In this document: positions 8,480 through 62,285 of the stretch, piece by piece
Layout of the letters: each line of letters starts with the position of its first letter
Position numbering within the stretch: position 1 is the first letter of the stretch
IMG/VR virus record: IMGVR_UViG_3300029305_007758
Source: a virus
Taxonomy: Duplodnaviria > Heunggongvirae > Uroviricota > Caudoviricetes
Reading direction: 5' to 3' (one strand)
DNA: 64,000 nucleotides
Notes under the pieces: generated by a model
What the model was told of the DNA's origin: nothing
What the model saw: the letters and a program-made list of their open reading frames with translations, nothing else
The model's database searches: none
Program-made: the position numbers and the translations under genes

Positions 8480-8565
8480 ATTTGCCCTCCTTTAAATAAT
8501 AGGTTAATAGTAACAATATAAATATGGTACATGACAAGTACATAAACGAAAGGAATGTAAAAACA

Positions 8566-9036
8566 ATGAATCAACTTTTAGACGATATTAGAAAAGATGC
8601 AATCAAGTGTGCAGATGTGGCAAGATGTAGTAATCCATCTTGGTATGATTCAGAATTTGATGTTTTTAAAGCAATTGGTACAATACTAACGTTAGCTGAA
8701 ATTGTTCAAAACGAAGGATTATTTGCTATGGATGATTTTCTTGACACTACAGATGATAGTTTACCGAATTGTAATTACTTCAAGAAAATTGGACATCTTG
8801 TAACAAAAGCGACAGAGCCGGAACTGATTGAAGAAATTGGAACAAATATATACTGGACCAATGGATATAGTAAATTCCATGCACTTGTAGCATATACATA
8901 TTTGCGCGGATTGCTTATGATTCAGACTGGCTATCATGTACATTATATTCAGGATGTATTACTTAGTGTATTAACCGATAAGGAATTAGAGTTATACAAC
9001 GAATCTGAATACAAATGGATTGAAACAGAAAAATAA
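8566..9036 (+). CDS. hypothetical protein
   Basis: AAAGGAA RBS. Start trimmed from 8524. Confidence 0.5.
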   Translation: MNQLLDDIRKDAIKCADVARCSNPSWYDSEFDVFKAIGTILTLAEIVQNEGLFAMDDFLDTTDDSLPNCNYFKKIGHLVTKATEPELIEEIGTNIYWTNGYSKFHALVAYTYLRGLLMIQTGYHVHYIQDVLLSVLTDKELELYNESEYKWIETEK

Positions 9037-9053
9037 TACAAAGATTAAAATGA

Positions 9054-9084
9054 AAGACGATACTTTTTGTATCGTCTTTTTCTT
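9054..9084 (+). terminator. Rho-independent terminator
   Basis: agacgatac tttttg gtatcgtct followed by ttttct. Confidence 0.6.
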
Positions 9085-9143
9085 CGTTTCAGACATTATT
9101 GAACCTAATATTATTTGTAATAAATGTAAATAGGAGCGAAAAT

Positions 9144-9335
9144 ATGAGAAAACCAAAAGTTGAAAACAAATATAATTTGAAACCAAAGGATATTGAGAGA
9201 GCAGTTGTTCTTGACCGTGAAAAATTAAGACAATCCCCATTTTGGAGAAATGATGTAATTGGAGCTTGGTGTTTAACTGGCGGTAGCGGTAAAGGATACT
9301 ACGGTGGACATATCAATTCTTATCTAAGATGTTAG
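9144..9335 (+). CDS. hypothetical protein (63 aa)
   Basis: AGGAG RBS. Motif A-like promoter upstream. Confidence 0.45.
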   Translation: MRKPKVENKYNLKPKDIERAVVLDREKLRQSPFWRNDVIGAWCLTGGSGKGYYGGHINSYLRC

Positions 9336-10503: not shown

Positions 10504-10562
10504 TAAAATATCTTGTACCATATTTATTGATATAAATATAAAAGACACAAGGAGATAAACAA

Positions 10563-11291
10563 ATGACAAAAGAATACATTGATTCCATATTAAAAGAAAA
10601 CGAAGATATAGCGAATGATATCAAAAGAATTGCAGAACATTATACTTTATCAGATTTTGTCAAGGCACCACAAAATGTCTGGGACCATTTTGTAAAAAGT
10701 GAATTTTTCGACAATCATATTGGATGGTATATTTACGACAATAGAAATGATTATTTATGTATGTATTCAGAGAACACTGGATATAGATTAACATCTGAAT
10801 ATGCAAATTTTTTGCGTCATCTTTTAAATAATTACAAAGCTGTTGATACAGTGTTTTATATTGTTGCATATCATTATTTATCATTAGGTAAACAATTAGG
10901 ATACGATTTGACTGGAGATCATTATTCGCGGTTTCCATTTTTTGGTGATAAAATGTCACCATTGGCACAAAAACGTTATAAAAAATTACAAATTATTCAT
11001 AATGATAATGACTTGTATGATACTATAAAATCATTTGATGAAAAAGATTTAAACTATTATAATCATTTTCACAGGATTATTGATTGTTACCATCATGCTA
11101 CAAAATATTTTTCGTTGCTTAATTATTTAATTCATTTTGATTCTTTTACAAAAAAATATGAATTCCATCGAAGATTTGAAGACGCATTGGATTTGTTTAT
11201 ATTTCGATACAAAATTATTTTTACAGACCAATTAATACATAGTTATACAGAACGAGAAATCATTGATAGTTTGGTAGACTATAAAGAATAA
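10563..11291 (+). CDS. hypothetical protein
   Basis: AAGGAGA RBS. Confidence 0.6.
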   Translation: MTKEYIDSILKENEDIANDIKRIAEHYTLSDFVKAPQNVWDHFVKSEFFDNHIGWYIYDNRNDYLCMYSENTGYRLTSEYANFLRHLLNNYKAVDTVFYIVAYHYLSLGKQLGYDLTGDHYSRFPFFGDKMSPLAQKRYKKLQIIHNDNDLYDTIKSFDEKDLNYYNHFHRIIDCYHHATKYFSLLNYLIHFDSFTKKYEFHRRFEDALDLFIFRYKIIFTDQLIHSYTEREIIDSLVDYKE

Positions 11292-12221: not shown

Positions 12222-12307
12222 GGAAATAAGAAATACTGTAGCAGAATTACCTGTTGCAGTGTTTTTTATGCATTGTGAAATTTGAAACCATATTTAATAT
12301 GATACTT

Positions 12308-12361: not shown

Positions 12362-12901
12362 TTGAATGAATTTATAAACAGCAGCATTATTCAAAAATTA
12401 TCGTCTGCTACAAATATGAAAATTGAATCAAAAGATGATGTATTACATGCAATAGATACACTGTTGGATAAATTAGAGGTTTCAGAAGCTATGAATCCAT
12501 CTAAAATTACGTCTGCAAAAAGCAAACTTGTATATTGTAAAAACTGTGGCAAGCAAATTTTGGCAAATGGCATTGAAACAATGTGTTATTTCTGCAAAGA
12601 TCAGGAACTGTTTGAAAGTGTAAAAGAATATATCCGCAACAATGATGTTAGAGAATATGAAGTTGCTACAAAATTTAAAATTCCTGTATCACGTGTTCGT
12701 AATTGGATTCGTGAAGGCCGAATTCAATATAAAGAAGCTGATACAACTAAAATTATTACACATTGCATTGTCTGTGGCGAGCCTATTCGCTTTGGTACCG
12801 TTTGTTCCAGATGCTTAAGAACACAAAATATGTCTGGTACAGAAACAGCACTTAAAGTATCAGATCCTGGAGGAATGTGGTTTTTAGGAAACAATGAATA
12901 A
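12362..12901 (+). CDS. zinc-ribbon protein (two CxxC pairs)
   Basis: TTG start with an AAAGGAAA RBS. The nearby ATG is out of frame. CKNCGK..CYFCKD and CIVCGE..CSRC motifs. Confidence 0.45.
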   Translation: MNEFINSSIIQKLSSATNMKIESKDDVLHAIDTLLDKLEVSEAMNPSKITSAKSKLVYCKNCGKQILANGIETMCYFCKDQELFESVKEYIRNNDVREYEVATKFKIPVSRVRNWIREGRIQYKEADTTKIITHCIVCGEPIRFGTVCSRCLRTQNMSGTETALKVSDPGGMWFLGNNE

Positions 12902-16970: not shown

Positions 16971-17084
16971 GTCATACACAGATTACTGCAACACTAATTG
17001 GAATTACCATATTGATTGCTTGGCTGCTTAAAGATCCAATTATCAATATGTTTCAGTGTTTGATGAATTAAAGGAGATAGGTTT

Positions 17085-17405
17085 ATGAAATTGTCGGATT
17101 GGACAGTAGTAACATACGAAAACGAAGGAAATTCAAAATCACATTATCTTTATGGACCAATTGAAGAATTTATAGAAAATGAAGAAGATAGGTACAATAT
17201 GAATATTGTACCACAAGAAGAGTGGTCTATCGAAAATATGATAGAAATTACCAGTAACTTGTTAGAAGATATCAATCATCATAAAACAGAGGCTGCGCCA
17301 CGATTTATTGTCGGCACAATGATTTCGGTGGGGATCAGTGATGATGATATCAAAAGTTTTATGCGGGAGTATATGGAACAAATTTATAATCGATACGGGT
17401 ATTGA
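17085..17405 (+). CDS. hypothetical protein
   Basis: AAAGGAGA RBS. Confidence 0.5.
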   Translation: MKLSDWTVVTYENEGNSKSHYLYGPIEEFIENEEDRYNMNIVPQEEWSIENMIEITSNLLEDINHHKTEAAPRFIVGTMISVGISDDDIKSFMREYMEQIYNRYGY

Positions 17406-17461: not shown

Positions 17462-17476
17462 CAAACCATATTTATT
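17462..17476 (+). promoter_or_regulatory. motif-B promoter-like element (AACCATATTTAT)
   Basis: tcaaaccatatttatt, about 35 nt upstream of ATG 17508. Confidence 0.5.
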
Positions 17477-19751: not shown

Positions 19752-19768
19752 GTGACCATATTTATTTA
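19752..19768 (+). promoter_or_regulatory. motif-B promoter-like element
   Basis: tgtgaccatatttattt, upstream of 19800. Confidence 0.5.
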
Positions 19769-23165: not shown

Positions 23166-23177
23166 AACCATATTTAT
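23166..23177 (+). promoter_or_regulatory. motif-B promoter-like element
   Basis: aaccatatttat, upstream of 23206. Confidence 0.5.
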
Positions 23178-23205: not shown

Positions 23206-24294
23206 ATGATTAAGAAGATTGACAAAAAAAATAAATTTGTTTCTGTATTTGATCCAGATACAGGCTTTTATATGAGAAGCGGTGTGATTGAAAATGGGAG
23301 CGACACAGGCATTGATCCTTTTATGACATCTTTTCCGGAACTACTTGATATCGGAATAATGGGACACTGCACGCATGGAGCAAAGGGTTTATGTATTAAA
23401 TCGGGTGTTCAATGTTATCAGGATGGATTACACACAAATGCTCCGAATATGTCTTTTAAAAATTTCAAAAGAATCGTAGATGAATGTAAAGGAAAAACAT
23501 TTCAATTCGCTCTTGGTGGCAGAGGGGATGTTGACCAGCATGAAGATTTTGAGGATATTCTTAAATACTGTAGAGCAAATAATATCGTGCCAAACTTTAC
23601 ATCTTCCGGTTTGGGGTTTACAGATGAAATCGTTTCACTTTGCAAAGAATTCTGTGGCGCAGTTGCAATTAGCTGGTATCGTCAAGACCATACCTATAGG
23701 GCGATTCAGATGTTACTTAATGCAGGTGTTAAAACGAATATCCATTATGTGTTAGGTAACAATTCTATTGATGAGGCAATTGAAAGATTAAAAAATAACG
23801 ATTTTCCGAAGGGTATCAATGCAATTATATTTTTGCTTCACAAACCTGTTGGATTGGGTCAAGAAAACAATGTATTGAATATTAATGATGAAAGAGTGAA
23901 AGAGTTCTTCAAAATTATTGATACCTATCAGTTTGATTTTAAGATTGGGTTTGATTCCTGTACAGTTCCGGCACTTGTTAATATGACATCTACAATTGAT
24001 AAAAATAGCTTTGATACTTGTGAAGGTGGACGCTGGTCGGCATACATTACATCTGATATGAAAATGTTACCGTGTAGTTTTGATAATCAAGATATGAAAT
24101 GGGCATATGATATTTCGAATGATACGATACAAAATGCTTGGAACAGTAATCAGTTTGAAGACTTTCGTAATTATTTTAGAAACTCTTGTAAAAAATGCGA
24201 CAAGCAAAATGAATGTATGGGTGGATGTCCGATTAGACGACAAATTGTTTTATGTAACAGAAAGGAGAAATCTTTGTATGAAGGTGCGAAATGA
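23206..24294 (+). CDS. Cys-rich protein with SPASM-like C-terminal motif; possible non-canonical radical-SAM/Fe-S enzyme
   Basis: CTHGAKGLC..C and FALGGRGD near the N-terminus. C-terminal CKKCDKQNECMGGCP. No canonical CxxxCxxC. Confidence 0.3.
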   Translation: MIKKIDKKNKFVSVFDPDTGFYMRSGVIENGSDTGIDPFMTSFPELLDIGIMGHCTHGAKGLCIKSGVQCYQDGLHTNAPNMSFKNFKRIVDECKGKTFQFALGGRGDVDQHEDFEDILKYCRANNIVPNFTSSGLGFTDEIVSLCKEFCGAVAISWYRQDHTYRAIQMLLNAGVKTNIHYVLGNNSIDEAIERLKNNDFPKGINAIIFLLHKPVGLGQENNVLNINDERVKEFFKIIDTYQFDFKIGFDSCTVPALVNMTSTIDKNSFDTCEGGRWSAYITSDMKMLPCSFDNQDMKWAYDISNDTIQNAWNSNQFEDFRNYFRNSCKKCDKQNECMGGCPIRRQIVLCNRKEKSLYEGAK

Positions 24295-24769: not shown

Positions 24770-24846
24770 GTGTATCATTTATTTCATATACCATATTTAT
24801 TATAGAAGAAATTATGATATAATTGAATAAAAGGAGAGTGGACAAT

Positions 24847-25179: not shown

Positions 25180-25280
25180 CAAAACGAACGCTACCTATAT
25201 TAATGGGTAGTGTTTTTTTTTATTCATAAAAGTATTACATACCATATTTATACTGAAAAAAACAATTGGAGGTATAAATT

Positions 25281-25388: not shown

Positions 25389-25484
25389 AACAATTACGCT
25401 ACGCGATCAATATGTTGCGTAGCTTTTGTTTTGCGCAAAATCAAACCATATTTAATGAAACAAATAAACTTGGAGGTTTAGAAC

Positions 25485-29189: not shown

Positions 29190-29334
29190 CTCTTATAATT
29201 GCTCAAATAATTTGAGTGTATCTTTTTCTTTTAGAAGCTGGCACATTTGTGTCAGCTTTGTTTGCGTTTAAGTATATTGTTTTGCAAAACTTTTTTCCAT
29301 ATTTAATGTAACAAAATAATAAGGAGGTAACAAA

Positions 29335-29787: not shown

Positions 29788-29891
29788 TAAGTCGTAAAAG
29801 CATTGGATAACATAATCTGATGCTTTTGTTTTTACAATAAATATATACCATATTTATTCTGAATGTAAAATTTACAAAGGAGATATACAAT

Positions 29892-32827: not shown

Positions 32828-32924
32828 ATCATTTTTATATAACGCTCCGGGTTAATTCTCGGAGCGTTAAAAAAAACATCGCATCCCATATTTAAAACAT
32901 AAATAAAAAGAAGGGAGACAAACA

Positions 32925-33176: not shown

Positions 33177-33196
33177 TTTCAAACATATCTTACATA

Positions 33197-33207
33197 CCAT
33201 ATTTATA
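33197..33207 (+). promoter_or_regulatory. motif-B promoter-like element
   Basis: accatatttat, upstream of 33242. Confidence 0.5.
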
Positions 33208-34186: not shown

Positions 34187-34203
34187 TTAATTGAAAAGAT
34201 TTT

Positions 34204-35777: not shown

Positions 35778-36015
35778 GTTTTTACCTCCTTTATTATTCA
35801 TTGTTATAGCTTTTAACGTATTAAATATGGTATCTAAGGTATACGAAACAAAAGGCTTCGGCTTGTTTACAAATTATGTAACTGATATATAATGATGCAG
35901 AAAAAACACACGAAGCTTTTTCTGTTATATAATGTGTGTCGTAAAATTGTTATTTAGCGACTAACCATGCGCAAAAACAAAACCCGAAACTGCTCTTTTG
36001 TTCCGGGCTTAATAT

Positions 36016-38522: not shown

Positions 38523-38632
38523 AGTTTCATATCCTCTTGCTTTCATAATATTATGGAATAATAATCATCCCATATTATAAATATGGTTACAATTTTTACA
38601 AAGCAAAAGAAAAAGACAGACACAATGTCTGC

Positions 38633-39810: not shown

Positions 39811-41139
39811 TTAATCTTCTTTTGGCAAAACATGTTCACTTTGATTACTTGTATCAGAAATGGATGTAATACTGTCAATGATTGTTAAAATGTCGTCATC
39901 ATCTTGCGACTTTGAAAATGTGAGACTACGATTTCGAAGCAATTTATCTTTTCTTTCTTCCGGCTCTGTTCCAGATATCTTTCTTAAAACTGCATTTTTA
40001 AGTTTCTGACCTGCGGAAAACTGTAATCGTCTCACCTCAATTGCATCAATATCTAATTGTTTTGCAACTTCATTTGGATTACATTTTTTATCCAAATCAA
40101 TAATCTCATGGTCATCAATTAATATTTTAAATCCATTAGATAATTCATACACTTTCTGTTCAATTTCTGTTAAACAACGAAAGGCTTCGATTAATTCTTC
40201 TACACGTTCTTGTGACATAATACGCTCTTCCGGCGTTTCAAATCGACTTTGTTTACGTTTGTTTGTAGCACTATTTTCATCATCAATTCGAGTCATTGTA
40301 TTTTCTGCTAAAATTCGAGCTGATGATAATTTAATCTGTTCCGGAGTTAATTCTTCTCCATGACGTTTGCAATAATTTGAAATCATATGAACTGTAGGTT
40401 TAAGTCCTTGTTCCAATAATGCTGTTTGCGCTTTACTTACAATGCGGTCAACTCTCATCGTAGTTTTAGATGCTCTAAAATTCTTCTTTGCTTCAAAATT
40501 ACTGATAGCGTCCTGAATTCTGGTTCGATAATAAGTTGTTAATTCTGCCTTGTTATAATCGTATTTGTCAATATCGTTCCAAATATATACCCAACAATAA
40601 GACATTGCATCTTGTATATCCTCATGCATTTTTGCAATATTTACATAATGATGCGCATGTTTTTTATAAAACTGTTCCACTTTTACTCGCACGAAGTTTC
40701 TAAAAAACATATAAAATGCTTCTTTTGTTCGATTCATGGCTTCTTCTGATGCACTTTTTTCGTAATTCTGAATTGCATCAATAATAAAATGTTGAGCCTC
40801 TAATACATGTTTTTTTGCAAAGAATTCTGCATATTTAATTGCTTCAATTTGTGTTTTTTCTGTCGCAATTCCATAGTATAAATCTTCTGCAATACTAAGA
40901 TCAAAATCACCTGTATATTCGGTCGTTTTTTGTTCTCTTACTTCATCGTTCGTAAATAAAGAATATTCGTTATCATCAAATTCTTCATAATCAACAAAAT
41001 CATCATCTTCCTCTTCGTCAAATAATTCATCTGTTGTATCAAACGTTTCGTCATATTCTTCATCACCAGGGCCATAATCAAACGCCCCAACATCATCAAT
41101 GTCATCATATAAATCGTCTTCTACATACTTTGTTCCCAT
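39811..41139 (-). CDS. divergent sigma-70-family-like factor with acidic N-terminus (tentative)
   Basis: Region-2-like EDIQDAMSYCWVYIWNDIDKYD...TYYRTRIQDAI. Region-4-like HTH NEVAKQLDIDAIEVRRLQFSAGQKLK. Confidence 0.4.
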   Translation of the reverse strand: MGTKYVEDDLYDDIDDVGAFDYGPGDEEYDETFDTTDELFDEEEDDDFVDYEEFDDNEYSLFTNDEVREQKTTEYTGDFDLSIAEDLYYGIATEKTQIEAIKYAEFFAKKHVLEAQHFIIDAIQNYEKSASEEAMNRTKEAFYMFFRNFVRVKVEQFYKKHAHHYVNIAKMHEDIQDAMSYCWVYIWNDIDKYDYNKAELTTYYRTRIQDAISNFEAKKNFRASKTTMRVDRIVSKAQTALLEQGLKPTVHMISNYCKRHGEELTPEQIKLSSARILAENTMTRIDDENSATNKRKQSRFETPEERIMSQERVEELIEAFRCLTEIEQKVYELSNGFKILIDDHEIIDLDKKCNPNEVAKQLDIDAIEVRRLQFSAGQKLKNAVLRKISGTEPEERKDKLLRNRSLTFSKSQDDDDILTIIDSITSISDTSNQSEHVLPKED

Positions 41140-42837: not shown

Positions 42838-42868
42838 TATAATAGGTTCACGAAAAATCAAAACGTAG
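42838..42868 (-). promoter_or_regulatory. motif-A promoter-like element (minus orientation)
   Basis: Reverse complement reads ctacgtttt gatttttcgt gaacctattat. Confidence 0.55.
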
Positions 42869-43325: not shown

Positions 43326-43441
43326 TGGTTTCCTCCTTTATATGTGGTTTGTGTATATAAATATGGTACATAGCATTTACATCAAATTTGTAAAAAAAAT
43401 AGGCACATGCTTTTTCAATGTACCTATTTATATATTCGTTT

Positions 43442-45498: not shown

Positions 45499-45559
45499 CT
45501 TTTACAGAATCTTTTTATCTGTATAAATATGGTTCGTAAGTTTGCAAAGTTAAAATATG

Positions 45560-46139: not shown

Positions 46140-46973
46140 TTAATTCTCTGCCCAACTATCACCGGTTGCATAATCAATCACAATACCCGGAGCAACATTG
46201 TGACAATAAACATTAAAACAAACACCAGCGCCATCATCTTCTACGCTATAAGCTTCCATCAAAACACCTCTTGCAACAAGTTCATTGTTAACAAATATAG
46301 GCGTTACACGATATAATACATGATTATCTGGGTTATCTTTAAGATAATACAAAACTGTTTCTTCAAACTGCCACATACCTTCAATATTCATGTAACGGGT
46401 CCCCGTAATTAAATTGCATTCGTTTGCATTTTCTCCTGCCAAAGAATATGCAATCAGATGACATCTGTTGTAAAGCCAATCCTGATCCACTAAACCTTCA
46501 TATTTTTTCTGTTCCCAACCACTTGGGTATACAGAACTAATGTCTCCACGATCTTCTGTTGGCATTAATTCGGTGCAAAGATTTGCGTATGCAGTTTGAC
46601 ATCGTCCCAAATAATCTAACGGCATATAAAATTCAAACTTTTCTGTACATTCTCTTTCCGTATATGTAAAATATGGAACATTATTATTCATGTAAGAATA
46701 TGCGTCACCGGTATATTCTGGAATCTGAATATTAGTAAGTTCATATTTTTCGTATCCTACCACAGATTCATCAAACATCATTAAGATATCTGTTTCTGAT
46801 ACAATATCTTTTATGGTATCTGTAACAACTGTTACATTTTCGGGTGTTACAAGTTTTCCATCCGGAATTAATGTTTCAATAATATCTGAAACCACATTTT
46901 CATTTGCAAATAAACCTGTAATAACTATAATTATTGCAAGCCATTTGATAGCGCGTTTGATTTTTCTAATCAT
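46140..46973 (-). CDS. membrane-anchored DNA/RNA non-specific endonuclease (EndA/NucA family)-like
   Basis: N-terminal TM. NRCHLIAYSLAGENANECNLITGTRYMN resembles the (D/N)RGHLIA...N active-site region. Confidence 0.5.
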   Translation of the reverse strand: MIRKIKRAIKWLAIIIVITGLFANENVVSDIIETLIPDGKLVTPENVTVVTDTIKDIVSETDILMMFDESVVGYEKYELTNIQIPEYTGDAYSYMNNNVPYFTYTERECTEKFEFYMPLDYLGRCQTAYANLCTELMPTEDRGDISSVYPSGWEQKKYEGLVDQDWLYNRCHLIAYSLAGENANECNLITGTRYMNIEGMWQFEETVLYYLKDNPDNHVLYRVTPIFVNNELVARGVLMEAYSVEDDGAGVCFNVYCHNVAPGIVIDYATGDSWAEN

Positions 46974-47048
46974 ATGTACATCTCCTTTTAACTATTATTT
47001 TGTTATATAGTTAAATATGGGATGCCATTAAAGCAGTTAGCAAATGTG

Positions 47049-47377: not shown

Positions 47378-48118
47378 TTATAATTTTGGCTCAAATATTG
47401 CTCTTGGCTTCAATTTAAATTTGTTATCATGATGACGTTTCATAATTGCTTGTTTAACTCTTATATCGCTACATAATCCGGTGCGAATAAAACGATCTAA
47501 GTCTTTATAACTGAATCCAAAGTTGTCTTCATCTGTTTTACCACAAAGACCATCGGACGGAGTTTTGTCGACCAAATAATCTGGCAATCCTAAGTAATGT
47601 CCGATTGCAATTACCTCTGTCGCAGTTAATCCGCCAAGTGGAGCAAAATCACCTTCACCATCTCCGCCAATTGTAAAATATCCAATATAATCTTCGGATA
47701 AATTACATGTGTTTACCATGCGACCATTTTCACATTGGCAAATGGCGCGAATTACTTTGGTACGTTCACGTGGTGGCAAGTTTTCTCGGGCCTGTTTTGT
47801 GATTTCGATGCCGCATTTTTCAAGCTCACGATAAGTAGCTTCTACACCGTCTTTAATGTTTACAGTGTAATTTTTGATACCTAAGTATTCGCAAACAGCA
47901 ATTGAGTCTGCAATATCTGCCTGTTCGCCATTTGGCAACATTACACCGATGACTCGTTCTTTTCCTAATGCACGAACGCATAATGCTGCTGCAATGGTGG
48001 AGTCTTTGCCACCCGAGATGCCTAACGCAGCATTGCAATCTGACCCATTTTTCTTGAACCATGCCTGGATCCAACTAACCAGATCATTTGTTGTTTGTTC
48101 TACGTTGAAATTGTACAT
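47378..48118 (-). CDS. nadE: NH3-dependent NAD+ synthetase
   Basis: PP-loop LGISGGKDSTIAAALC (SGGxDS). Size and overall layout fit NadE. Start trimmed to MYNF, which has a GAGGAAG RBS. Confidence 0.85.
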   Translation of the reverse strand: MYNFNVEQTTNDLVSWIQAWFKKNGSDCNAALGISGGKDSTIAAALCVRALGKERVIGVMLPNGEQADIADSIAVCEYLGIKNYTVNIKDGVEATYRELEKCGIEITKQARENLPPRERTKVIRAICQCENGRMVNTCNLSEDYIGYFTIGGDGEGDFAPLGGLTATEVIAIGHYLGLPDYLVDKTPSDGLCGKTDEDNFGFSYKDLDRFIRTGLCSDIRVKQAIMKRHHDNKFKLKPRAIFEPKL

Positions 48119-48263
48119 ATTTCTTCCTCGCTTCTTAATCAATCTGTTTTGCACCTAACAGGTTCAATAACCCCGTTTCAAATGCAGTTGTTACACATTT
48201 TTCTGCGTTATCAACTTCATAGTTTACTGAATCAACTCTAACTTCGAAACACTAGGATAAATC

Positions 48264-49469
48264 CTAGTGTTCCATTCTCCAATTGATACAACGCTGTAAG
48301 TAATCAACATATGCATCATTTTTACACATACCTTTACCTGGAGTATCACTGATTTTTGCACAATCACTACCATTCACATTTGTTACTTTCATAACAATGT
48401 TTAAAGCTGGCGCAAATGTATCATTTGAGATATAAGTTCCAATTCCAAATGCAACTTTTGCTCTGCCACAGAAGTGACGCGCAATTTTATCTGCCTTTTC
48501 AAAGTTTAAACTGTCACTAAATAACAGTGTCTTTGTTTTTGGATCGATACCAAGTGATTCATAATGACGAATCATTTTTTCGCCCCATTCAATTGGATCA
48601 CCACTATCATGGCGTACACCGCTAAAAAGTGATGCAAATGTTAACTGAAAATCTTTTAAGAATACATCAGTTGTAATTGTGTCAGTTAACATGATTCCAT
48701 TTAATACTCCGTATTCTTTAACCCATGCTTCCATTGTGTACCAATTTGAATAAGCAGGATTGTGTTTCGGATTACCCTGACCAATTGCCATATTGAGCTC
48801 ATGCGCCATGGTTCCGACAGCAGTCAGTCCAAATTTCTTTGCCAGATATACATTACTTGTTCCAACAAAATTGCTGCAACCATACTTTGTTTCAGCTAAG
48901 CGTTTTACAGCATATTCCTGTGCCTCAGCTGATAAACGTCTACGAAGACCAAATTCACTGAAATTTGCTAAGTAAAGTGGACCACCAACAGCAATCTTCT
49001 TTAACTTTTCTTCGAAATGTTCTTTGAAGCTAATAAGCAATTCATCATAATCATACATCATACGGAAATATACTTCATTTACGATTGCAAGCACCGGAAT
49101 TTCATACATAGATGTATTGAGCCAAGCGCCTTTTGCTTCAATGGATAAACCACATTCAGCATCTGTTGTGATTGTAAAATCTTCGAAACGAGGACTCCAG
49201 AGACGTAAGAAATCAATGTATGACTTTTTGAGCCATTTAATTGATGCAAGATACTGTAATTCTTCTTCAATAAATCGAAGATCGCAGTACGCTTTAATCT
49301 GTTCAGTAATCTCTTCCACAATTGCTGGTGTGAAATATACATCCTTGTTACGACATTTAAATGTCCATGTTGTTTCATAATCAGAAAACTGATGGAAGAT
49401 ACACTGACCCATGCTAAGTTTGTACAAATCTGTCTCTAAGAGACTTGTAATAATTGGATTGAGTTTCAT
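48264..49469 (-). CDS. pncB: nicotinate phosphoribosyltransferase
   Basis: SLLETDLYKLSMGQCIFHQF, GTSNVYLAKKFGLTAVGTMAHE, GVRHDSGDPIEWGEKMIRHYESLGIDPKTKTLLFSD and NIVMKV..NG...AKISDTPGK are collinear with the conserved blocks of class-I PncB. 401 aa. AAGGAG RBS. Motif B at 49516..49525. Confidence 0.9.
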   Translation of the reverse strand: MKLNPIITSLLETDLYKLSMGQCIFHQFSDYETTWTFKCRNKDVYFTPAIVEEITEQIKAYCDLRFIEEELQYLASIKWLKKSYIDFLRLWSPRFEDFTITTDAECGLSIEAKGAWLNTSMYEIPVLAIVNEVYFRMMYDYDELLISFKEHFEEKLKKIAVGGPLYLANFSEFGLRRRLSAEAQEYAVKRLAETKYGCSNFVGTSNVYLAKKFGLTAVGTMAHELNMAIGQGNPKHNPAYSNWYTMEAWVKEYGVLNGIMLTDTITTDVFLKDFQLTFASLFSGVRHDSGDPIEWGEKMIRHYESLGIDPKTKTLLFSDSLNFEKADKIARHFCGRAKVAFGIGTYISNDTFAPALNIVMKVTNVNGSDCAKISDTPGKGMCKNDAYVDYLQRCINWRMEH

Positions 49470-49515: not shown

Positions 49516-49525
49516 TAAATATGGT
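49516..49525 (-). promoter_or_regulatory. motif-B promoter-like element upstream of pncB
   Basis: taaatatggt on plus strand, which is accatattta on the gene strand. Confidence 0.5.
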
Positions 49526-51924: not shown

Positions 51925-52041
51925 ATTTATATTCTCCTTTATAATTAATAGATGTATTTTATTGCATTCTTAAATATGGTTCATCAGATAACTCTTTAAA
52001 AAAAATACGAAGCAGGTTAATCTGCTCCGTATTCATTTGTT

Positions 52042-52936: not shown

Positions 52937-53494
52937 TTATCGCACCTCCACCTGACACATCTTCATTGCTTCAATAGCTGTTTTGTGTGACTCTGGAGTT
53001 ACGCATGCGCATGCTTTTTCGATAACGCAAATCTTTGTTTCCGGCACCGCTGCTTTCGCAATAAGTACGTTACTGATAACACAGATTCCGGTACAAACGC
53101 CACAGAAATGAATTTCGTCATAATCAGAAAATTCAAATTTAAGTTTATGTGCCAAAATTTCAGAACCAAATGTTGGTTTCTCAAGAACTATTCCTTTTAT
53201 ATATTTAGACGCAGATGTTAATTTTGAAGTCTGATTTACAATTGCTTCTTTAATATCTTTCTGAATCTCATGACCTTTTGTACCTCTGATACAATGTGGA
53301 ACCGGTAAATTTCTACCTTCCTGTGTTTCCATGTAATTTTCGCCATGAGTATCCTGAGTCGTAATAATTGCATCATACTCACCTGATTCAATAAGCTTAA
53401 TTACTTCCGGTACTGTTGCTGCGCATTCAGCGTTTCCCAATGGTCCTGTTAAAAAGTCGTTCTGCATGTCCACGATTACTAATGCTTTTTTCAT
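52937..53494 (-). CDS. pncA: nicotinamidase (isochorismatase-fold)
   Basis: ALVIVDMQNDF (catalytic Asp). PHCIRGTKGHEI, compare PncA PHCVSGTPGADF (metal site). FCGVCTGICV, compare ATDHCV (catalytic Cys). Confidence 0.8.
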   Translation of the reverse strand: MKKALVIVDMQNDFLTGPLGNAECAATVPEVIKLIESGEYDAIITTQDTHGENYMETQEGRNLPVPHCIRGTKGHEIQKDIKEAIVNQTSKLTSASKYIKGIVLEKPTFGSEILAHKLKFEFSDYDEIHFCGVCTGICVISNVLIAKAAVPETKICVIEKACACVTPESHKTAIEAMKMCQVEVR

Positions 53495-53522
53495 AATTTT
53501 TGTTTCCTTTCATTTACATAGA

Positions 53523-54095
53523 TTAATTGTTATTATTTATCATGTTTCGATAAAACGGCACCGACATTAACTCGGCACGAAGTCTATCGTACATTTTATG
53601 AAGTCTCGGATTTACAAGTGCCATCCATTCTTCGCGGCGATCTTCAACCATGAGCTGTCTTAACATTGTTGCAGAAATTGGAAGTTCCGCTCTGTTAATA
53701 ATAAGCTCAGTTGTGTTTTTAAGATCTTCTTTCGCAAACCAGCTGGAGCGACTCTCATCGTTTCCGTAAATCATGATTTCCGGGTTCTTATAGATATAAC
53801 GATGCACGTTATCTAATAAATAGCGCCCCCATTCTGGACGAATATCATCTTCATTTGTCATATCAGCAAGTCCGTAAATCATAATGTTTGGCGAATCACC
53901 GTAGATTTCCTTTAACATTTCGGTTCGGGTGTTGATGTTAAGTGGATTTCTTTCGGTACCACATTCCTGTGAACTACCTACTAAAATAATCAAACGATCA
54001 CACAACAATAAACCTGTATCAACAAGTTTTTCATGTCCCTTATGAAACGTCTGAAATCTACCAACAATTAATCCTGTATCGTATGGTTTTCCCAT
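53523..54095 (-). CDS. nadM: NadM/NadR-type nicotinamide/nicotinate mononucleotide adenylyltransferase
   Basis: GRFQTFHKGH is identical in pattern to archaeal/bacterial NMNAT GRFQPFHKGH ((H/T)xGH nucleotidyltransferase). IILVGSS. AAAGGAG RBS. Motif B at 54140..54150. Confidence 0.85.
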   Translation of the reverse strand: MGKPYDTGLIVGRFQTFHKGHEKLVDTGLLLCDRLIILVGSSQECGTERNPLNINTRTEMLKEIYGDSPNIMIYGLADMTNEDDIRPEWGRYLLDNVHRYIYKNPEIMIYGNDESRSSWFAKEDLKNTTELIINRAELPISATMLRQLMVEDRREEWMALVNPRLHKMYDRLRAELMSVPFYRNMINNNN

Positions 54096-54139: not shown

Positions 54140-54150
54140 TAAATATGGTT
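54140..54150 (-). promoter_or_regulatory. motif-B promoter-like element upstream of the nadM-pncA-radical SAM operon
   Basis: taaatatggtt on plus strand. Confidence 0.5.
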
Positions 54151-56770: not shown

Positions 56771-58405
56771 TCAACCATTCGATTTTAAAAATGCTTTATT
56801 GATATACATTTCCTTATCAGCTCTATCAATAATATCATCTATTGATACATCTTTTTTTGAACCAAATGCATACCCTGATGCAATACTAATTTTAACCTTA
56901 TCTGATTTTGCATTAAATTTATCACAAATATCATTCAATCGATTTCTCAATTGTTCCTGTTCTTCTGGGGTTGACATTGAAAAACATGCAGCAAATTCGT
57001 CACCGCCAAAACGGAATACATTATTTTTCCCATATATACTTGACAACACCTTTGCTGAATCACATAATAATTTATCACCAATTTGATGCCCATATGTATC
57101 ATTGTGATATTTTAAATTATTGATGTCAAATGATACGACACATAGATTTTGTAACGGAAGTTTTCCAATTGCATTCATAAATGCAAAACGATTACCAAGT
57201 CCCGTTAATGAATCTTTTAATGCAATCTTCTTATACATTTCCATATTGTGACTTTCATTTATTGTTGCAGAAAAAATCTTAATTTCATTAAAAACTACAG
57301 CAAAAACAGAACATAACAAACTAAGTTCTGTAACAAAACTTGCCATTTTATATTGAACTCCACAGAATGACATGATGACACCAAAGATTGTTACAAATAA
57401 TAGCGCTAGTGCAATTGTTGTTATATAATCATTGTTATCCAATAATTGAAAAATAGCCTGGCAAATAATATATCCTACTATAATAAATACGAACCAAGAA
57501 TATATCGTAACACTAATTTCTGGTAATGGTAATTTAATATCCCAATATATTGAAACAAATTGTGAAGCAATGATTATTATTGCCATTACAAAGTGTGTGC
57601 ATATAAATCCGATACTGGATATTCTTGTCAAATCAGTTATATGTAAGCATAAAAATAATGGTAACAAATAAACCGAAATGTAATACAAAAAATAAAGTAA
57701 TGTATTGTTTTTAACAAACATTTGACCAATATATGTATTACTAATATGCATTATAAAAAATGTAATGCAAAGTAATCCTAAAAACAAAGTAGGCCTTTTT
57801 ACATTTGATGACGCTGTATGTATTAAATGAAATATACATAATATGCTACCAAATGATAAAATTACTACACAAATTAATGTATCAAATAGCTCAGTTCGCA
57901 ATATATAAGATGATATATCATTCGCATATCCACTGTATACATCCAATACGCAAGCATTATCCGAAGTTTGTATCGAAAGTGTTATGCTTTTTGTATCTTT
58001 AGGAATATTTATCACATTCCAAGTAATTTCCGGTAATCGACTTTTTATTTTATCATAAGCATAGTGATAAATAATATTTTCATTCTCGTTGGTTACTGTT
58101 ATAATTGCGTTTTGAGACTGAAATGCAATTGCAGAAATATTGGAAACATCTTTGGTTGTAACAAATTTTTCCTCTTCGCATATTAATTGCCATTCTTCTT
58201 TTATTACAGAACGATTTGCAGCATATACAATTGAATCAGTTTTTTCATTTGATATAAATGCTAAAATCATCATCAATAGTAAAAAACTAAACGTTGTACA
58301 AAACAATATTAAATTTTGTGGTATTTTAATGTCACAACCAAATATTTTATTTGTTTTTTTATTTAAATGTAGATTGTGACCGATTTGTGATATGGTTCTC
58401 ATCAT
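56771..58405 (-). CDS. membrane-bound diguanylate cyclase (multi-TM N-terminus plus GGDEF domain)
   Basis: LTGLGNR, DINNLKYHNDTYGHQIGDKLL, RFGGDEFAACF (intact GGDEF). No RxxD I-site. Start overlaps the upstream stop (TAATG). Confidence 0.8.
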   Translation of the reverse strand: MMRTISQIGHNLHLNKKTNKIFGCDIKIPQNLILFCTTFSFLLLMMILAFISNEKTDSIVYAANRSVIKEEWQLICEEEKFVTTKDVSNISAIAFQSQNAIITVTNENENIIYHYAYDKIKSRLPEITWNVINIPKDTKSITLSIQTSDNACVLDVYSGYANDISSYILRTELFDTLICVVILSFGSILCIFHLIHTASSNVKRPTLFLGLLCITFFIMHISNTYIGQMFVKNNTLLYFLYYISVYLLPLFLCLHITDLTRISSIGFICTHFVMAIIIIASQFVSIYWDIKLPLPEISVTIYSWFVFIIVGYIICQAIFQLLDNNDYITTIALALLFVTIFGVIMSFCGVQYKMASFVTELSLLCSVFAVVFNEIKIFSATINESHNMEMYKKIALKDSLTGLGNRFAFMNAIGKLPLQNLCVVSFDINNLKYHNDTYGHQIGDKLLCDSAKVLSSIYGKNNVFRFGGDEFAACFSMSTPEEQEQLRNRLNDICDKFNAKSDKVKISIASGYAFGSKKDVSIDDIIDRADKEMYINKAFLKSNG

Positions 58406-60291
58406 TAATCTATTCCGTTTTGTTCTCTTACAAATTCGATAAACTCATTTATTGGTAACGCTTTTGAAAAATAAAAACCTTGAATGTAATCAACTCCAAT
58501 ATTTTGCATCTGTTTTAACATATCTTCTGTTTCAACACCTTCTGCTACAGTTTTTAATCCAAGATCATGTGCCATGTTAACAGCCGCTTTCATAACAATA
58601 GATGCTTTATCATTCAAAAAGAATGCACGTGTAATGTTCATATCAAATTTTAAAAATTCAATTGGCATATCAATTACATAGTTTAAGTTACTCTCACCAC
58701 TACCAAAATCATCTAAACTAAAAGATACGCCACGAGAAATTAAAGCATTCATGTTTTCAAGCAAATGTTGTTTTTGTGACAAAACTGCTGTTTCAGTAAT
58801 TTCCAAATTCACGCAATCGGTTGGAACATTATATTTATCTGCAAGTTCATCGTAACGTCCAACAAAAGATTTATTCTCACCATTTTTAATCGATAAATTA
58901 ATTTCAATGTATTCAAGTCCTAAACTTTTAATATCTGTTTGATTTAAAAATTCAAAGGTTTTATCCATGATTACTTCTTCAAGCTCATATATTAATCCGG
59001 TACTTTCTGCAACACCAATAAATGACCCAGGGGGGATAATATTTCCGTTTCTATCTACAATTCTGGTTAAAACTTCCGCAGCAGTGAATTTTTTACGTTT
59101 ATTGGACCAAATTGGTTGTAAATAAATAACAACACGATTTTCTGCAATTGCATCCGTAATCATTTGTTTTGTAGTTTCAATTTTGCATAACTGTTCATAC
59201 TCTTCGTTGCTTACTGTTTTTATAATTCCTGGTACCTTGTTTGTCATTTCATCACTGTATTTTTCATACTCTTTTTCACCAGCATCTTTAATAATTGTAT
59301 AAGCAATTTTTGAAGCAGGTTTATTGCTTTCAAGTGTCTTTTTGATTTCATTTGTTACTTTTTCTGCAAGATTTTCTGTATCCTCAACAAGAAAAACAAG
59401 ATCATCATCTGAATCTCTAAATCCGTATCCATCTTTAGACGCATTCATTCTGTCTGTTACTTTCTTATTGAGAATTGCTTGACTTGCTGCATCAAGCTCT
59501 TCATTTGCCATATGCACTATAATCATGTTGTATCTAATTCCTTTCTTTTTCAAAAAGCGTGCATACATATTTAATGCGTCTTTATTGAATAATCCTGTTT
59601 CACTGTCTATTAACATTTTGGGGTTTTCTAATTCAAGAAACATAACTAAAATTCCTAACGTGGCAGCATAACTTACGATTAATAATCGTGGAAAACACAA
59701 TTGAATCAATGCTGCTATAATCCAAATTGTTATCCAAAAAATAATAACGTTTCTGTATTTTTTTGTTGTAATATCTTTATATCGTATTAATAAATATATG
59801 GTACTGATAATAAATACAAAAGCATATGCATATGTTGCGTATGGTGCTGGACCATAACTATATATTTCATTATTTTCGTTATGTATATATAATGGAACAA
59901 TTGTAATGACGCATATTGCTGATATTGTAATTATCTTTACGTACCATTTAACTATTTTTGTATTTTTTTCATTGCATAATTCTGTATTTTTATCATTTAT
60001 TGCAAAAATTGTATATCCCGTATACGAAAATAACAAAACACACATTGTAACAAGTGTTAACAAGTATAACCTGCAAACAATTTCTGTTAACATTGATTCC
60101 GGATTACTCTGTATTAAATGTATAGAAACAACATCTAATATTAGTCCAAGCATATTGTTAACAAGAAATAAAAAGAACAAGTGATGTTTATCCATATTAA
60201 GCCGTTTGTTAGAAATTGTTGCGTAAATAATGACAAACAACATAACAAATGCACATCCTTGAGTCATTATATTTATCATTTCTATATTCAC
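58405..60291 (-). CDS. membrane-bound c-di-GMP phosphodiesterase (TM, degenerate GGDEF, EAL)
   Basis: EAL-domain residues EVLTR, EITE, DDFGSG, KFD, EGVE, QGFYFSKALP all present. The GGDEF position reads GFRDSDD, so it is degenerate. Confidence 0.8.
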   Translation of the reverse strand: MNIEMINIMTQGCAFVMLFVIIYATISNKRLNMDKHHLFFLFLVNNMLGLILDVVSIHLIQSNPESMLTEIVCRLYLLTLVTMCVLLFSYTGYTIFAINDKNTELCNEKNTKIVKWYVKIITISAICVITIVPLYIHNENNEIYSYGPAPYATYAYAFVFIISTIYLLIRYKDITTKKYRNVIIFWITIWIIAALIQLCFPRLLIVSYAATLGILVMFLELENPKMLIDSETGLFNKDALNMYARFLKKKGIRYNMIIVHMANEELDAASQAILNKKVTDRMNASKDGYGFRDSDDDLVFLVEDTENLAEKVTNEIKKTLESNKPASKIAYTIIKDAGEKEYEKYSDEMTNKVPGIIKTVSNEEYEQLCKIETTKQMITDAIAENRVVIYLQPIWSNKRKKFTAAEVLTRIVDRNGNIIPPGSFIGVAESTGLIYELEEVIMDKTFEFLNQTDIKSLGLEYIEINLSIKNGENKSFVGRYDELADKYNVPTDCVNLEITETAVLSQKQHLLENMNALISRGVSFSLDDFGSGESNLNYVIDMPIEFLKFDMNITRAFFLNDKASIVMKAAVNMAHDLGLKTVAEGVETEDMLKQMQNIGVDYIQGFYFSKALPINEFIEFVREQNGID

Positions 60292-60302
60292 TTCCCTTCG
60301 GC

Positions 60303-61550
60303 TTATTTTTTGTCTGGCATATCACATAACCGTAATTGATATTTTGCCTCAGTTGGCAACACCCCATTCATTAAGTTCATTGCGTGTTTATCAATGATAC
60401 GGTCTAATAAATTTCGTACTGTACGCGCATTACCAAAATTAGGTACTAGACTCAATCTTTGAATTTCTATTCCAAATGCGTCTAACAATTCTTGTGATAC
60501 GGATAATGACCTTTCATGTGCCATTGATTTAAATATCCGTTTTAAATCATTATTACTATAATTGCCAAAATACATATAATATTTCACACGTGATTCGATA
60601 CCAGGATTACTGTTTATTAAATCCTGCATCTCCTTTTCATATCCTGCAAAAATGAATATTAATTCGTCTTTGTAATCTTCCATTGCTTTTACAATAGTTG
60701 CAATTACTTCTTGTCCCCCACCACCAGATAACAATGCATACGCTTCATCGATAAAAATGACACCACCGAGACTTTTTTGAATTAGCATTGCTGCACGTTT
60801 ACTGCTTTCACCAACAGATAACCCATTAAAAAAGTTACCATCGATTTCAACACATTGATTTTTTTTAATGTAACCATATTGATACAATAATCCGGCCATA
60901 ATGCGAGCAACCGTGGTTTTACCGGTTCCGGGAGCACCCGAAAACACCATACTCATAGAACTTAATGTTTCAGTTGTTCTTTCATTCGAATTTTTATTTT
61001 TACGATTCTTTTTCTGGTCATCTCGTACACTTTGTTCATATCGCATTCTTGCTTCCATTTGCTTAATATCCTCTTTTACGTTATTAAGACCAATGAGACG
61101 GTTTATTTCTGCTTTCGGATTTTCTGAACCTTGATGTGTAATCTTTTTTAATGTTGGTGCGTCTAAAATACGTTCTGCATCCATCATTTTTTGCTGTTCA
61201 ATCGCTTCACGTTCTTTTTTTGATAACTGTGAAAAATTACCACGTTTTCTGTTTATACCAAATTCGTCATATTCAACCTCGTCACGAAGTTCTTGTCGTT
61301 TCTTTGTTAAATATGGAGAAAGAATTGCACATCCGGCACACAATATTAACCAAATAAATGCTGGAACACTATTAATTGTAAATATTTGTGTTTGTATTCC
61401 AAAAGATTGCGTGACTTGATTATTTCCCATATTTTCTGATAAAACACGCATGAAAAACAACATGCCGAATACAATAATTCCTACCATATCAAGCACAGAT
61501 GCTGCGATAATTGCATAATAATTAATTGTCTTTGAACTTTGATTATTCAT
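60303..61550 (-). CDS. CbbX/SpoVK-type AAA+ ATPase with N-terminal TM helices
   Basis: Walker A GAPGTGKTTVARIMA. Walker B GVIFIDEAYAL. Confidence 0.75.
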   Translation of the reverse strand: MNNQSSKTINYYAIIAASVLDMVGIIVFGMLFFMRVLSENMGNNQVTQSFGIQTQIFTINSVPAFIWLILCAGCAILSPYLTKKRQELRDEVEYDEFGINRKRGNFSQLSKKEREAIEQQKMMDAERILDAPTLKKITHQGSENPKAEINRLIGLNNVKEDIKQMEARMRYEQSVRDDQKKNRKNKNSNERTTETLSSMSMVFSGAPGTGKTTVARIMAGLLYQYGYIKKNQCVEIDGNFFNGLSVGESSKRAAMLIQKSLGGVIFIDEAYALLSGGGGQEVIATIVKAMEDYKDELIFIFAGYEKEMQDLINSNPGIESRVKYYMYFGNYSNNDLKRIFKSMAHERSLSVSQELLDAFGIEIQRLSLVPNFGNARTVRNLLDRIIDKHAMNLMNGVLPTEAKYQLRLCDMPDKK

Positions 61551-61553
61551 AAA

Positions 61554-62216
61554 TTACCACCTTAATGCTTCATATTCCTTTTGCATCCGAAGAAACATTG
61601 TTTCATCTCCGCCTTTGCTGTCCGGATGAAATGCTTTTGCTAGACTTCTATATCTAACGTCTGCTTCTTCTTTCGTTTTACATCCAATAAAAAACTGAAA
61701 CGGTGCATTTGTTTCAGTTGTTTTTGTATCAATATCTGATTGTTTATGAAATTGATACTCATTATGTTTTGGCGTAATATTATTTAAAGATGAAATAATA
61801 TTATCCATTGATGTTAAAACTGATAATAGTTGTTCCATACAATAACCGGATCCGGCAAAATCTTTTTGTTCAATACAAGTTCGACACCGATTAATGTATT
61901 CATTTGCTTCATTACAAGTTCTTTCATACTCAAAAGTAATTGTTTCAAATTGTTTTTGTGCATCAAAATCATTACACATGACAATTTTGCGTTCTGTTTT
62001 TTGTAACTCCATTAAATATCGATTATTTGTTTGATTATATTGCTTAATCAATTCATTAAAACGATTGATATAATTTGCTGCAGTATTATAATTATTTCGT
62101 TTAGTTTTTGCATTCGGATTTGGCTTAACAAATAAAAACACACAAATCGTTACAATAATTACGGCAACTATAATAAAAAACGAAAGCATAAATACCTCCA
62201 AGTTTAATTTCATCAA
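61554..62216 (-). CDS. J-domain (DnaJ-like) membrane-anchored protein
   Basis: C-terminal J domain with HPD (YRSLAKAFHPDSKGGDE). N-terminal TM. Motif B at 62219..62230. Confidence 0.7.
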   Translation of the reverse strand: MMKLNLEVFMLSFFIIVAVIIVTICVFLFVKPNPNAKTKRNNYNTAANYINRFNELIKQYNQTNNRYLMELQKTERKIVMCNDFDAQKQFETITFEYERTCNEANEYINRCRTCIEQKDFAGSGYCMEQLLSVLTSMDNIISSLNNITPKHNEYQFHKQSDIDTKTTETNAPFQFFIGCKTKEEADVRYRSLAKAFHPDSKGGDETMFLRMQKEYEALRW

Positions 62217-62285
62217 ATTAAATATGGTTTTAAGTTCTGCAAAGTAAACAAAAAGGACTGACTTTCGTCAATCCTCTTTGCTTCA

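Follow-up and report, generated by a model that had tools for sequence, protein, structure and literature searches.

Placement and conservation of motif B

What kind of signal is a short sequence that recurs ahead of one gene after another along a large mobile element, and which protein reads it? The question is raised by a stretch of 64,000 nucleotides (nt; hereafter "the window") from the IMG/VR virus record IMGVR_UViG_3300029305_007758, filed under Caudoviricetes, in which a preliminary description had noticed two recurrent promoter-like motifs, A and B, and had assigned at least 20 copies to B. Motif B was followed up here over 80.7 kb (the window and its flanks) of the 106-kb JGI contig Ga0318466_10004279, to which the window belongs, and in related elements. 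The results identify B as very probably a promoter element, for which the -10 region of a promoter not of the sigma-A type is the favored interpretation. We give about even odds (roughly 0.5) to the joint reading in which B forms the core of a promoter class served by a non-housekeeping sigma-70-family factor, the best candidate being a sigma factor of 442 amino acids (aa) encoded in the window. The register, start site and reader proposed below are predictions drawn from sequence comparison.

The 12-mer AACCATATTTAT, the form under which motif B had been introduced, occurs four times in the window. The core of the motif is the 10-mer ACCATATTTA, of which a motif scan returned 19 exact copies; dinucleotide shuffling predicts 0.46, and none of 100 shuffled sequences reached 19. 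Allowing one mismatch gave 45 matches (13 expected), three or four of which share the intergenic, sense placement of the exact copies: 29296 (TCCATATTTA), 32885 and 47012 (CCCATATTTA) and possibly 17006 (ACCATATTGA). All of the sites listed in the preliminary description are real and lie within 0 to 9 nt of their positions here, with the larger offsets at 12278 (12287), 25235 (25241), 43362 (43358) and 47005 (47012); that list included the first three one-mismatch variants and lacked the exact copy at 10517-10526 (+). Information content is confined to ~11 to 12 positions (w-ACCATATTTA-w), with a T-rich tract on the 5′ side and an A-rich tract on the 3′ side. Because conservation is limited to these positions, B is not part of a longer repeat, and a repeat unit or mobile-element remnant was ruled out as its nature. 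The flanks outside the window hold seven further exact copies, including one ahead of the primase gene and one ahead of the DnaE gene just past the window end.

All 19 exact copies are intergenic in a window of which 10.9% is intergenic (P ~5e-19), and all 19 are co-oriented with the downstream gene (P ~2e-6); copies in the contig flanks and in relatives are placed likewise. A ribosome-binding site (RBS) and ATG follow the core; the start codon lies 38 to 78 nt (median, 46.5) past its CC, or ~29 to 69 nt past its 3′ end, so that the 30 to 40 nt reported earlier was about right. B copies lie on the plus strand until ~34 kb (the site at 8519..8528 is tabulated on the minus strand) and on the minus strand beyond, a change that coincides with the switch of gene orientation and GC skew. 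At ~34200 to 34430, where both change sign, convergent terminators were seen on both strands, and the maximum of the cumulative skew points to a replication terminus or else to a purely transcription-linked skew.

A terminator scan placed eight B sites 19 to 36 nt past the stem of an intrinsic terminator, and several additional sites come after visible hairpins with T-runs. Intrinsic terminators were enriched in the first 40 kb (25 vs. 6.3 and 19 vs. 8.4) and not beyond (11 vs. 7.9). The 19 to 36 nt after a terminator leave space for a -35 region and none for another promoter, which speaks for B as part of the promoter rather than of a 5′ untranslated region. This bears on the idea that B acts at the RNA level, as a transcribed 5′-leader element such as a processing site or translation signal. 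Its fixed orientation, its position always upstream of the RBS and the A-rich leader that follows would suit such a role; however, the at least eight cases with a terminator end 19 to 36 nt upstream offer no space for a separate promoter, the distance from B to the RBS varies by 40 nt, no Rfam family matched and no conserved flank could pair with B. We regard an RNA-level role as very improbable. The promoter-like character first ascribed to B is thus borne out by its intergenic, co-oriented and post-terminator placement.

B is also conserved in relatives. A 95-kb syntenic relative from the same sample (contig L001), whose sigma factor is 51% identical to that of the window, carries B five times in exact form within 21 kb, always intergenic and in sense, along with copies of motif A; orthologous B sites stand ahead of its SSB-like gene, its exonuclease gene and the gene after DnaE. 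When the region ahead of the SSB-like gene was aligned across four lineages, only CTTTGTA and CATAyTTA were conserved, at fixed spacing. More distant relatives have the forms ACCATACTTA (L006), ACCATATTTA and CTCATATTTA (L024, sigma ~30% identical) and TCCATATTTA (L026), and L023, with a sigma only 24% identical, has TmCATATTAAA six times.

Two related promoter classes

Motif A (CTwCGTTTT-N15-CC-TTATAT) has ~21 copies in the window and was recovered de novo as TTTTwCTwCGTTTT-N..-TGAaCCTtATAT. Its -35 box drifts among relatives, from CTwCGTTTT in the window to TTTACGATTT in L024, with the TGAGCCTTATA part retained. The preliminary description had treated A and B as two mutually exclusive classes. 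They do head different sets of transcription units (~23 by B and ~21 by A), with very few tandem or hybrid sites, of which the reported tandem at 12287/12308 is one, and nearly all intergenic gaps of at least 60 nt hold one or the other (every gap in the window was tabulated). The two classes alternate along the genome and do not form blocks. However, they are not unrelated. Both contain CC followed by TAT.TA (CCT-TATATA in A, CCA-TATTTA in B), the median CC-to-ATG distance is 46 nt in A and 46.5 nt in B, and a TAAC-like box lies 12 to 15 nt past the CC in both classes and in both element families considered below. The main difference is the conserved -35 box (CTwCGTTTT), present in A only. 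The smallest CC-to-ATG distance in class A is 28 nt (site 55171), so that the start site must fall within ~16 nt of the CC.

These features (the shared CC-TAT.TA module, the equal CC-to-ATG distance, the TAAC-like box and the 28-nt minimum) favor one common register for A and B, in which the hexamer TAT(A/T)TA would occupy -12 to -7. The CC would then stand at -15/-14, the site of TG in an extended -10 promoter, followed by one base and the hexamer (CCA-TATTTA), and transcription would start ~6 to 8 nt beyond the hexamer in an A-rich, GTAACAAA- or ATAACAAA-like stretch. The -35 position of motif A is then taken by TACGTT, with an 18-nt spacer. B is without a fixed -35 hexamer. A TTTGYA box is found 10 nt upstream of the CC at about one-third of the sites, and was ruled out as a canonical -35 element because its spacing to all -10 registers except TAwnnT is 10 to 12 nt. 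TTG at the canonical 17-bp spacing is present at 7 of 29 B sites here and is stronger in a second element family from IMG/VR. Nor does B conform to the canonical sigma-A or extended -10 promoter, given that CC takes the place of TG and that sequences matching the sigma-70 consensus are no more frequent in the window than expected by chance (observed/expected, 108/111.6, 124/113.5 and 91/110.7).

Two other registers appear possible from the alignments. The hexamer could be CATATT, the sole part invariant across all relatives, which would supply both A at -11 and T at -7, whereas the TATTTA register has A at -7. Alternatively, a TAwnnT hexamer could begin at the last TA of the core, with T at its sixth position in 11 of 19 window sites (58%). 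On the TAwnnT register rests the proposal that B is an operator, in which the invariant ACCATATT would bind an element-encoded activator or repressor over a weak sigma-A promoter (TTGCAn, 16-nt spacer, TAwnnT), by sigma appropriation in the geometry of the T4 MotA box. A B+ subset reads TTGCAA-N16-TAwnnT, the IMG/VR consensus (...CCATATT-TAGGAT) has T at the sixth position in 79%, and GCTTTGTA, the upstream box, is separated from CATATT by 11 nt, a gap that resembles the spacing of T4 middle promoters; a small protein of unknown function (24847-25179) is also common to both element families. Yet B is non-palindromic and strictly oriented, which is unusual for dimeric regulators, the TTGYA box accompanies only about one-third of window sites, the sixth-position T is present at only 11 of 19 window sites, and the shared small protein showed no DNA-binding domain. 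An operator role is accordingly judged improbable, and the -10 region of a non-sigma-A promoter is retained as the best description of B.

A sigma factor of a novel family

The product of the gene at 39811-41139 is a sigma-70-family factor. Together with its homologues it matched the NCBIfam sigma-70 family model TIGR02937 at E values of 2e-10 to 4e-15, two of three homologues scored above the cut-off of that model, and members of the family matched the Pfam regions Sigma70 r2, r3 and r4. An AlphaFold2 model had a predicted local distance difference test (pLDDT) score of >90 over residues 72 to 290 and 300 to 395, and the top 50 matches of this model in a Foldseek search of the PDB were all sigma factors. 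The next-best NCBIfam model, FliA/WhiG, was weak and far below its family cut-off. The protein has a long acidic N-terminus, and its gene is followed by one for a ClpX-like AAA_2 ATPase (38633-39745). It is the sole sigma-like open reading frame (ORF) found in the 80.7 kb. Its operon lies behind copies of motif A, and a B copy (43358) lies farther upstream.

The family to which this factor belongs is novel and undescribed. It is rare, with 36 cluster representatives at E <1e-10 among 1.84 billion; tblastn against phages and plasmids returned nothing, and scans of viral, genome and metagenome contigs yielded no confirmed relatives.

A second element family with the same motifs

Pattern scans of IMG/VR returned many contigs of 40 to 120 kb, mostly 3300045988_*, with repeated ...TTGTATGC...CCATATTTAGGATAACAAA. 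The CCATATTTAGGATAACAAA word occurs there in 241 distinct contexts, with an RBS and ATG downstream of all sampled copies. Relative to the CC, 85% of these B copies have TT at -20/-19 and 43% have G at -18; the equivalent of motif A is cTGACGAGTTTT-N9-TGAGCCTTATA. The genes clearly common to this family and the window are limited to the NS_2 nuclease and one 110-aa protein (24847-25179 [+], behind B; 39% identity, 10 loci), which has no Pfam hit. Ten long ORFs annotated in the IMG/VR family include a Mob_Pre relaxase, pentapeptide/DUF7666 proteins and a CCA/poly(A) polymerase, and none of the ten matched a virion family in Pfam; the 3300045988_* contigs (loci L269-L388, e.g., L278 and L384), dozens of which are filed as viral, may be plasmids or phage-plasmids.

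The larger of these contigs (85 to 120 kb) encode a different sigma factor of 347 aa, which is RpoD-like (E ~1e-64, with a score below family cut-offs) and apparently canonical in regions 2.4, 3.0 and 4.2 as judged from its sequence. Its gene is preceded by an A-like and a B promoter, and no homologue of it was found in the window family. One gene adjacent to the sigma gene is common to carriers of the two types (L023, 11824-13128; L278, 4307-6007), placing the two sigma types in related loci; the 442-type and RpoD-like factors may be divergent occupants of one locus, serving one element function.

Comparison with known systems

The closest known system is that of SigN (ZpdN), a sigma factor encoded by Bacillus subtilis plasmid pBS32, which is autoregulated, has a regulon confined to the plasmid that includes genes for DNA polymerase III, an exonuclease and nucleotide metabolism, and recognizes the promoter consensus ATTTACGTTT-N9/10-CCAGATATAA (Burton et al. 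2019, PMC6751061). In both cases a large, low-GC Firmicute extrachromosomal element has its own sigma factor, and a long, near-invariant -10 block starts with CC (CCAGATATAA in pBS32; CCATATTTA in B and CCTTATAT in A). The B core agrees with ACCAGATATA at 8 of 10 positions without gaps, and motif A has both the -35 word TACGTTT and CC..ATAT. The genes headed likewise include DNA polymerase III, exonuclease and nucleotide or cofactor metabolism genes, and the sigma gene stands behind a promoter of its own class. Differences are also evident: B is without the -35 box ATTTACGTTT or TACGTTT, the related CTwCGTTTT being found in motif A only; pBS32 has one promoter class where two are interleaved here; and a search ahead of the 442-aa sigma gene identified no sigma-A promoter of the LexA type. 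By analogy, the system plausibly works like that of SigN and pBS32 without being a member of that family.

Other likenesses are looser. Extended -10 promoters (TGn-TATAAT) similarly have a conserved dinucleotide one base before the hexamer and a weak or dispensable -35 element, but B has CC for TG and, in the favored register, a hexamer (TATTTA, or TATATA in A) ending in A. The T4 late promoter (TATAAATA, gp55/gp33) and the SPO1 gp28 and gp33-34 promoters are element-specific, high-information -10 classes with a dedicated sigma, and there too several classes are interleaved on one genome; however, their sequences are different, no gp55- or gp28-like proteins were found here, and the present element resembles a conjugative plasmid rather than a lytic phage. 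FliA/sigma-28 promoters (TAAA-N15-GCCGATAA) have a -10 element starting with CC (GCCGATAA), and FliA/WhiG was the next-best model for the 442-aa sigma, whereas B is without the TAAA -35 element and has a different hexamer. The extended motif was absent from all papers of the library searched in full text, and SigN was the closest case returned by a keyword search on plasmid-encoded sigma factors. New here are the proposed CC-type extended -10 element, its pairing with a SigN-like class A, the novel sigma family and the spread of the system over uncharacterized elements of ~100 kb.

Which sigma factor reads motif B?

In the proposed scheme, RNA polymerase carrying a non-housekeeping sigma-70-family factor, with the 442-aa sigma as the leading candidate, would read B. 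Since the sigma gene lies behind motif A promoters, positive feedback would be possible, and the whole would form an element-autonomous regulon like that of SigN on pBS32. Class A would be its -35-dependent branch, and class B a -35-independent branch serving replication, salvage of nicotinamide adenine dinucleotide (NAD) and the genes for the type IV coupling protein (T4CP) and PcfJ. That the reader of B is a sigma encoded by the element itself is a tentative claim, a little short of even. It is favored by the dedicated B block, high in information content and unlike a sigma-A promoter, by the SigN precedent, and by the fact that all families with these motifs encode a sigma.

Several observations weigh against this scheme. 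The IMG/VR family has both promoter classes but encodes a different sigma, and no homologue of the 442-aa protein was found in the 900 kb sampled from it. The B core is near-invariant while the 442-aa sigma family diverges to 24 to 30% identity, for which a conserved host reader is the easier explanation. The base at -7 in the favored TATTTA register is A, not the usual T, and the uncovered ~25 kb of the contig could encode other factors. The likeness to SigN, as far as sequences go, is at word level only: SigN promoters have 9 nt between CGTT and CC, against 15 nt in motif A, the 442-aa sigma has no detectable homology to SigN (199 aa; hhalign probability, 0.4%; BLASTP E, 0.5), and phmmer with SigN found no homologue in the 80.7 kb.

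B might instead be a promoter read by a sigma of the host, either the housekeeping factor of an unusual Firmicute or an alternative one, with the element sigmas serving other promoters such as motif A. A and B are common to at least two element families with almost no joint genes and with different sigma genes, and the invariance of the B core across strongly diverged 442-aa-type sigmas points the same way. The variant of motif A (TGAGCC vs. TGAACC) follows GC content, and perhaps the presumed host clade, rather than the sigma type; B in the IMG/VR family has TTG at the canonical 17-bp spacing from TATTTA; and an incoming element requires some promoters that its host can read. Nevertheless, an invariant 10-nt block with CC for TG and A at -7 has no resemblance to any sigma-A consensus, and sigma-70-type matches are at chance in the window. 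The multi-copy loci examined in metagenome and viral scans were almost all element families or repeats and none was recognizably chromosomal, which is a weak test, and the motif A pattern gave 11 single, chance-level matches in 185,579 species genomes, without motif B copies. Furthermore, given the sigma-adjacent gene shared between L023 and an IMG/VR contig, both sigma types may represent a single element function in divergent forms. A host reader is therefore possible, though on the unlikely side, and a non-housekeeping factor, with the 442-aa sigma foremost, is kept as the preferred reader.

One further candidate reader, an RNA polymerase of the element, was considered in the 1486-aa protein encoded past the window end. 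This protein has a transmembrane segment and an NlpC/P60 motif (DCSGFV), and was ruled out as being of the transmembrane wall-hydrolase type; within the window, no large protein is left unannotated.

Genes downstream of the motifs and nature of the element

Sites and downstream genes are listed in Table 1. Class B heads genes for a 5′-3′ exonuclease, an SSB-like protein, a VirD4-like T4CP, a PcfJ-like 737-aa protein, PncB, NadM-like, isochorismatase and radical SAM proteins, and HD-domain, NS_2-nuclease, SPFH, TPM and SPASM proteins, as well as the lead gene of an AAA-EAL-GGDEF operon. The preliminary description had correctly assigned the exonuclease (35822), the 737-aa protein (17465), the T4CP (19755), pncB (49516), the nadM-like and pncA-like genes (54140) and the protein with a weak DnaJ domain (62219) to this class. 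Class A heads an XRE gene, an HD_4 (alarmone-hydrolase-like) operon, XpaC/TelA, many small genes and the operon of the sigma gene.

Table 1. Motif B and motif A sites and the sigma gene in the 64,000-nt window
Feature	Position	Strand	Context
B, exact	8519..8528	-	Ahead of 75-aa gene 8252-8479
B, exact	10517..10526	+	Ahead of 242-aa gene 10563-11291
B, exact, then motif A at 12308 (tandem)	12287..12296	+	Ahead of YvyF-like gene 12362-12901
Possible degenerate B (ACCATATTGA), intergenic, sense	17006..17015	+	Ahead of gene 17085-17405
B, exact, 19 nt past terminator	17465..17474	+	Ahead of 737-aa PcfJ-like gene
B, exact, 20 nt past terminator	19755..19764	+	Ahead of VirD4-like T4CP gene
B, exact	23167..23176	+	Ahead of SPASM-domain gene 23206-24294
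B, exact, past terminator	24790..24799	+	Ahead of 110-aa gene (24847-25179) common to IMG/VR family
B, exact, past terminator	25241..25250	+	Ahead of 35-aa ORF
B, exact, past terminator	25445..25454	+	Ahead of TPM-domain gene 25485-26495
B, one mismatch (TCCATATTTA), past terminator	29296..29305	+	Ahead of gene 29335-29787
B, exact	29847..29856	+	Ahead of gene 29892-30203
B, one mismatch (CCCATATTTA)	32885..32894	+	Ahead of gene 32925-33176
B, exact	33196..33205	+	Ahead of SPFH-domain gene 33218/33242-34186
B, exact	35822..35831	-	Ahead of 5′-3′ exonuclease gene; orthologous L001 site has B too
B, exact, CTTTGTA-N9 upstream box, past terminator	38578..38587	-	Ahead of SSB-like gene; footprint kept in four lineages
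B, exact	43358..43367	-	Ahead of gene 42993-43325, itself upstream of sigma operon
B, exact, TTTGCA-N9 box	45524..45533	-	Ahead of HD-domain gene 44593-45498
B, one mismatch (CCCATATTTA)	47012..47021	-	Ahead of NS_2 endonuclease gene 46140-46973
B, exact, hybrid with A-type box (CTTCGTT-N12-ACC)	49516..49525	-	Ahead of pncB
B, exact, 22 nt past terminator	51971..51980	-	Ahead of DUF6440 gene
B, exact	54140..54149	-	Ahead of operon: cytidylyltransferase-like, isochorismatase, radical SAM genes
B, exact, TTTGCA-N9 box	62219..62228	-	Ahead of 220-aa (weak DnaJ) gene and AAA-EAL-GGDEF genes; orthologous L001 site has B
Motif A (CTACGTT-N15-CCTTAT), representative	628..655	+	
Other motif A starts	3804, 4840, 7058, 9082, 9761, 11337, 12308, 14042, 21215, 26557, 30220, 31161	+	
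Motif A, representative	42841..42868	-	Ahead of sigma operon
Other motif A 5′ ends	41449, 43814, 46091, 47333, 51441, 55171, 56725	-	
442-aa sigma-70-family protein gene, candidate reader of A and/or B	39811..41139	-	Operon behind motif A at 42868 and 41449

A few sites and gene groups deserve separate mention. A one-mismatch B copy (ACCATATTTG) at 8475-8484 (+) overlaps the start codon of the minus-strand gene behind the exact copy at 8519-8528 (-) and faces the gene at 8566-9036, otherwise without an A or B motif; the two copies may form a divergent promoter pair or may have arisen by chance. The protein encoded at 12362-12901 (+), behind the tandem B and A promoters, matched the YvyF flagellar-region family TIGR03826 (E, 3e-12) and has a zinc ribbon. 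In B. subtilis, yvyF adjoins flgM, the gene for the anti-sigma-D factor, and by that analogy a regulatory role of the YvyF-like protein toward the sigma is conceivable. A set of NAD salvage genes, encoding NAPRTase, NAD synthase, a cytidylyltransferase-like protein of the NadM/NadR type and an isochorismatase/PncA-like protein (47378-49469 and 52937-54095, both minus strand), lies beside those for TelA and an XpaC-like protein and is divided between B and A promoters. The operon at 56771-61550 (-), encoding AAA ATPase, EAL and GGDEF proteins (cyclic-di-GMP turnover), is also kept in L001.

From its gene content the element looks like a large (~100 kb), conjugative-plasmid-like Firmicute element rather than a phage. 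This view rests on the T4CP, PcfJ, the primase-DUF3854 protein, the NlpC/P60 protein and DnaE, and strong Shine-Dalgarno sites and 31% GC fit it. The T4CP is VirD4-like, of the CD1115 family, and <30% identical to T4CPs of Firmicute conjugative plasmids; sequence past the window end (L021, 1-9265) encodes the 1486-aa protein mentioned above, the primase-DUF3854 protein and a full 1380-aa DnaE. No virion or structural genes were seen in the 80.7 kb, a PHROGs search with 10 proteins (nine of them without a Pfam hit, the sigma included) gave a single match, to a family of unknown function, and no DNA relatives turned up when 24 kb of the window was compared with phages and plasmids by megablast. 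Rfam and tRNA scans were empty. Both the T4CP and the RpoD-like sigma find their best matches in Firmicutes, at <40% identity, so that the host can be guessed to phylum only. The preliminary description had suggested that the two promoter classes mark temporally distinct regulons; because the element looks conjugative-plasmid-like and not phage-like, this is conjecture, and the gene content gives no support to a phage-like temporal program.

Implications

The motif offers a practical marker for elements of this kind. A 17-nt pattern retrieved more than 100 loci from tens of IMG/VR "viral" contigs of 40 to 120 kb, and since a Mob_Pre relaxase and a sigma factor are encoded on those contigs, the motif could be used to find, delimit and perhaps reclassify uncharacterized large mobile elements. 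The question of the reader has also become concrete, namely which sigma reads CCATATTTA. If element sigmas read A and B, this would be a second and far more widespread case of the pBS32/SigN principle, in which a plasmid has its own promoter code, here split into two branches and using an extended -10 element of a CC type not described before. A bolder and decidedly speculative extension is that A and B together constitute the element-autonomous transcription code of a large, undescribed superfamily of ~100-kb elements in gut or rumen Firmicutes, whose fast-diverging sigmas, from RpoD-like to 442-aa, read a CCn-TAT.TA module left unused by the host sigma-A. Were that so, element genes would be shielded from the host by their common code, and co-resident conjugative and mobilizable elements (such as the Mob_Pre-bearing IMG/VR contigs) could respond to each other's sigma.

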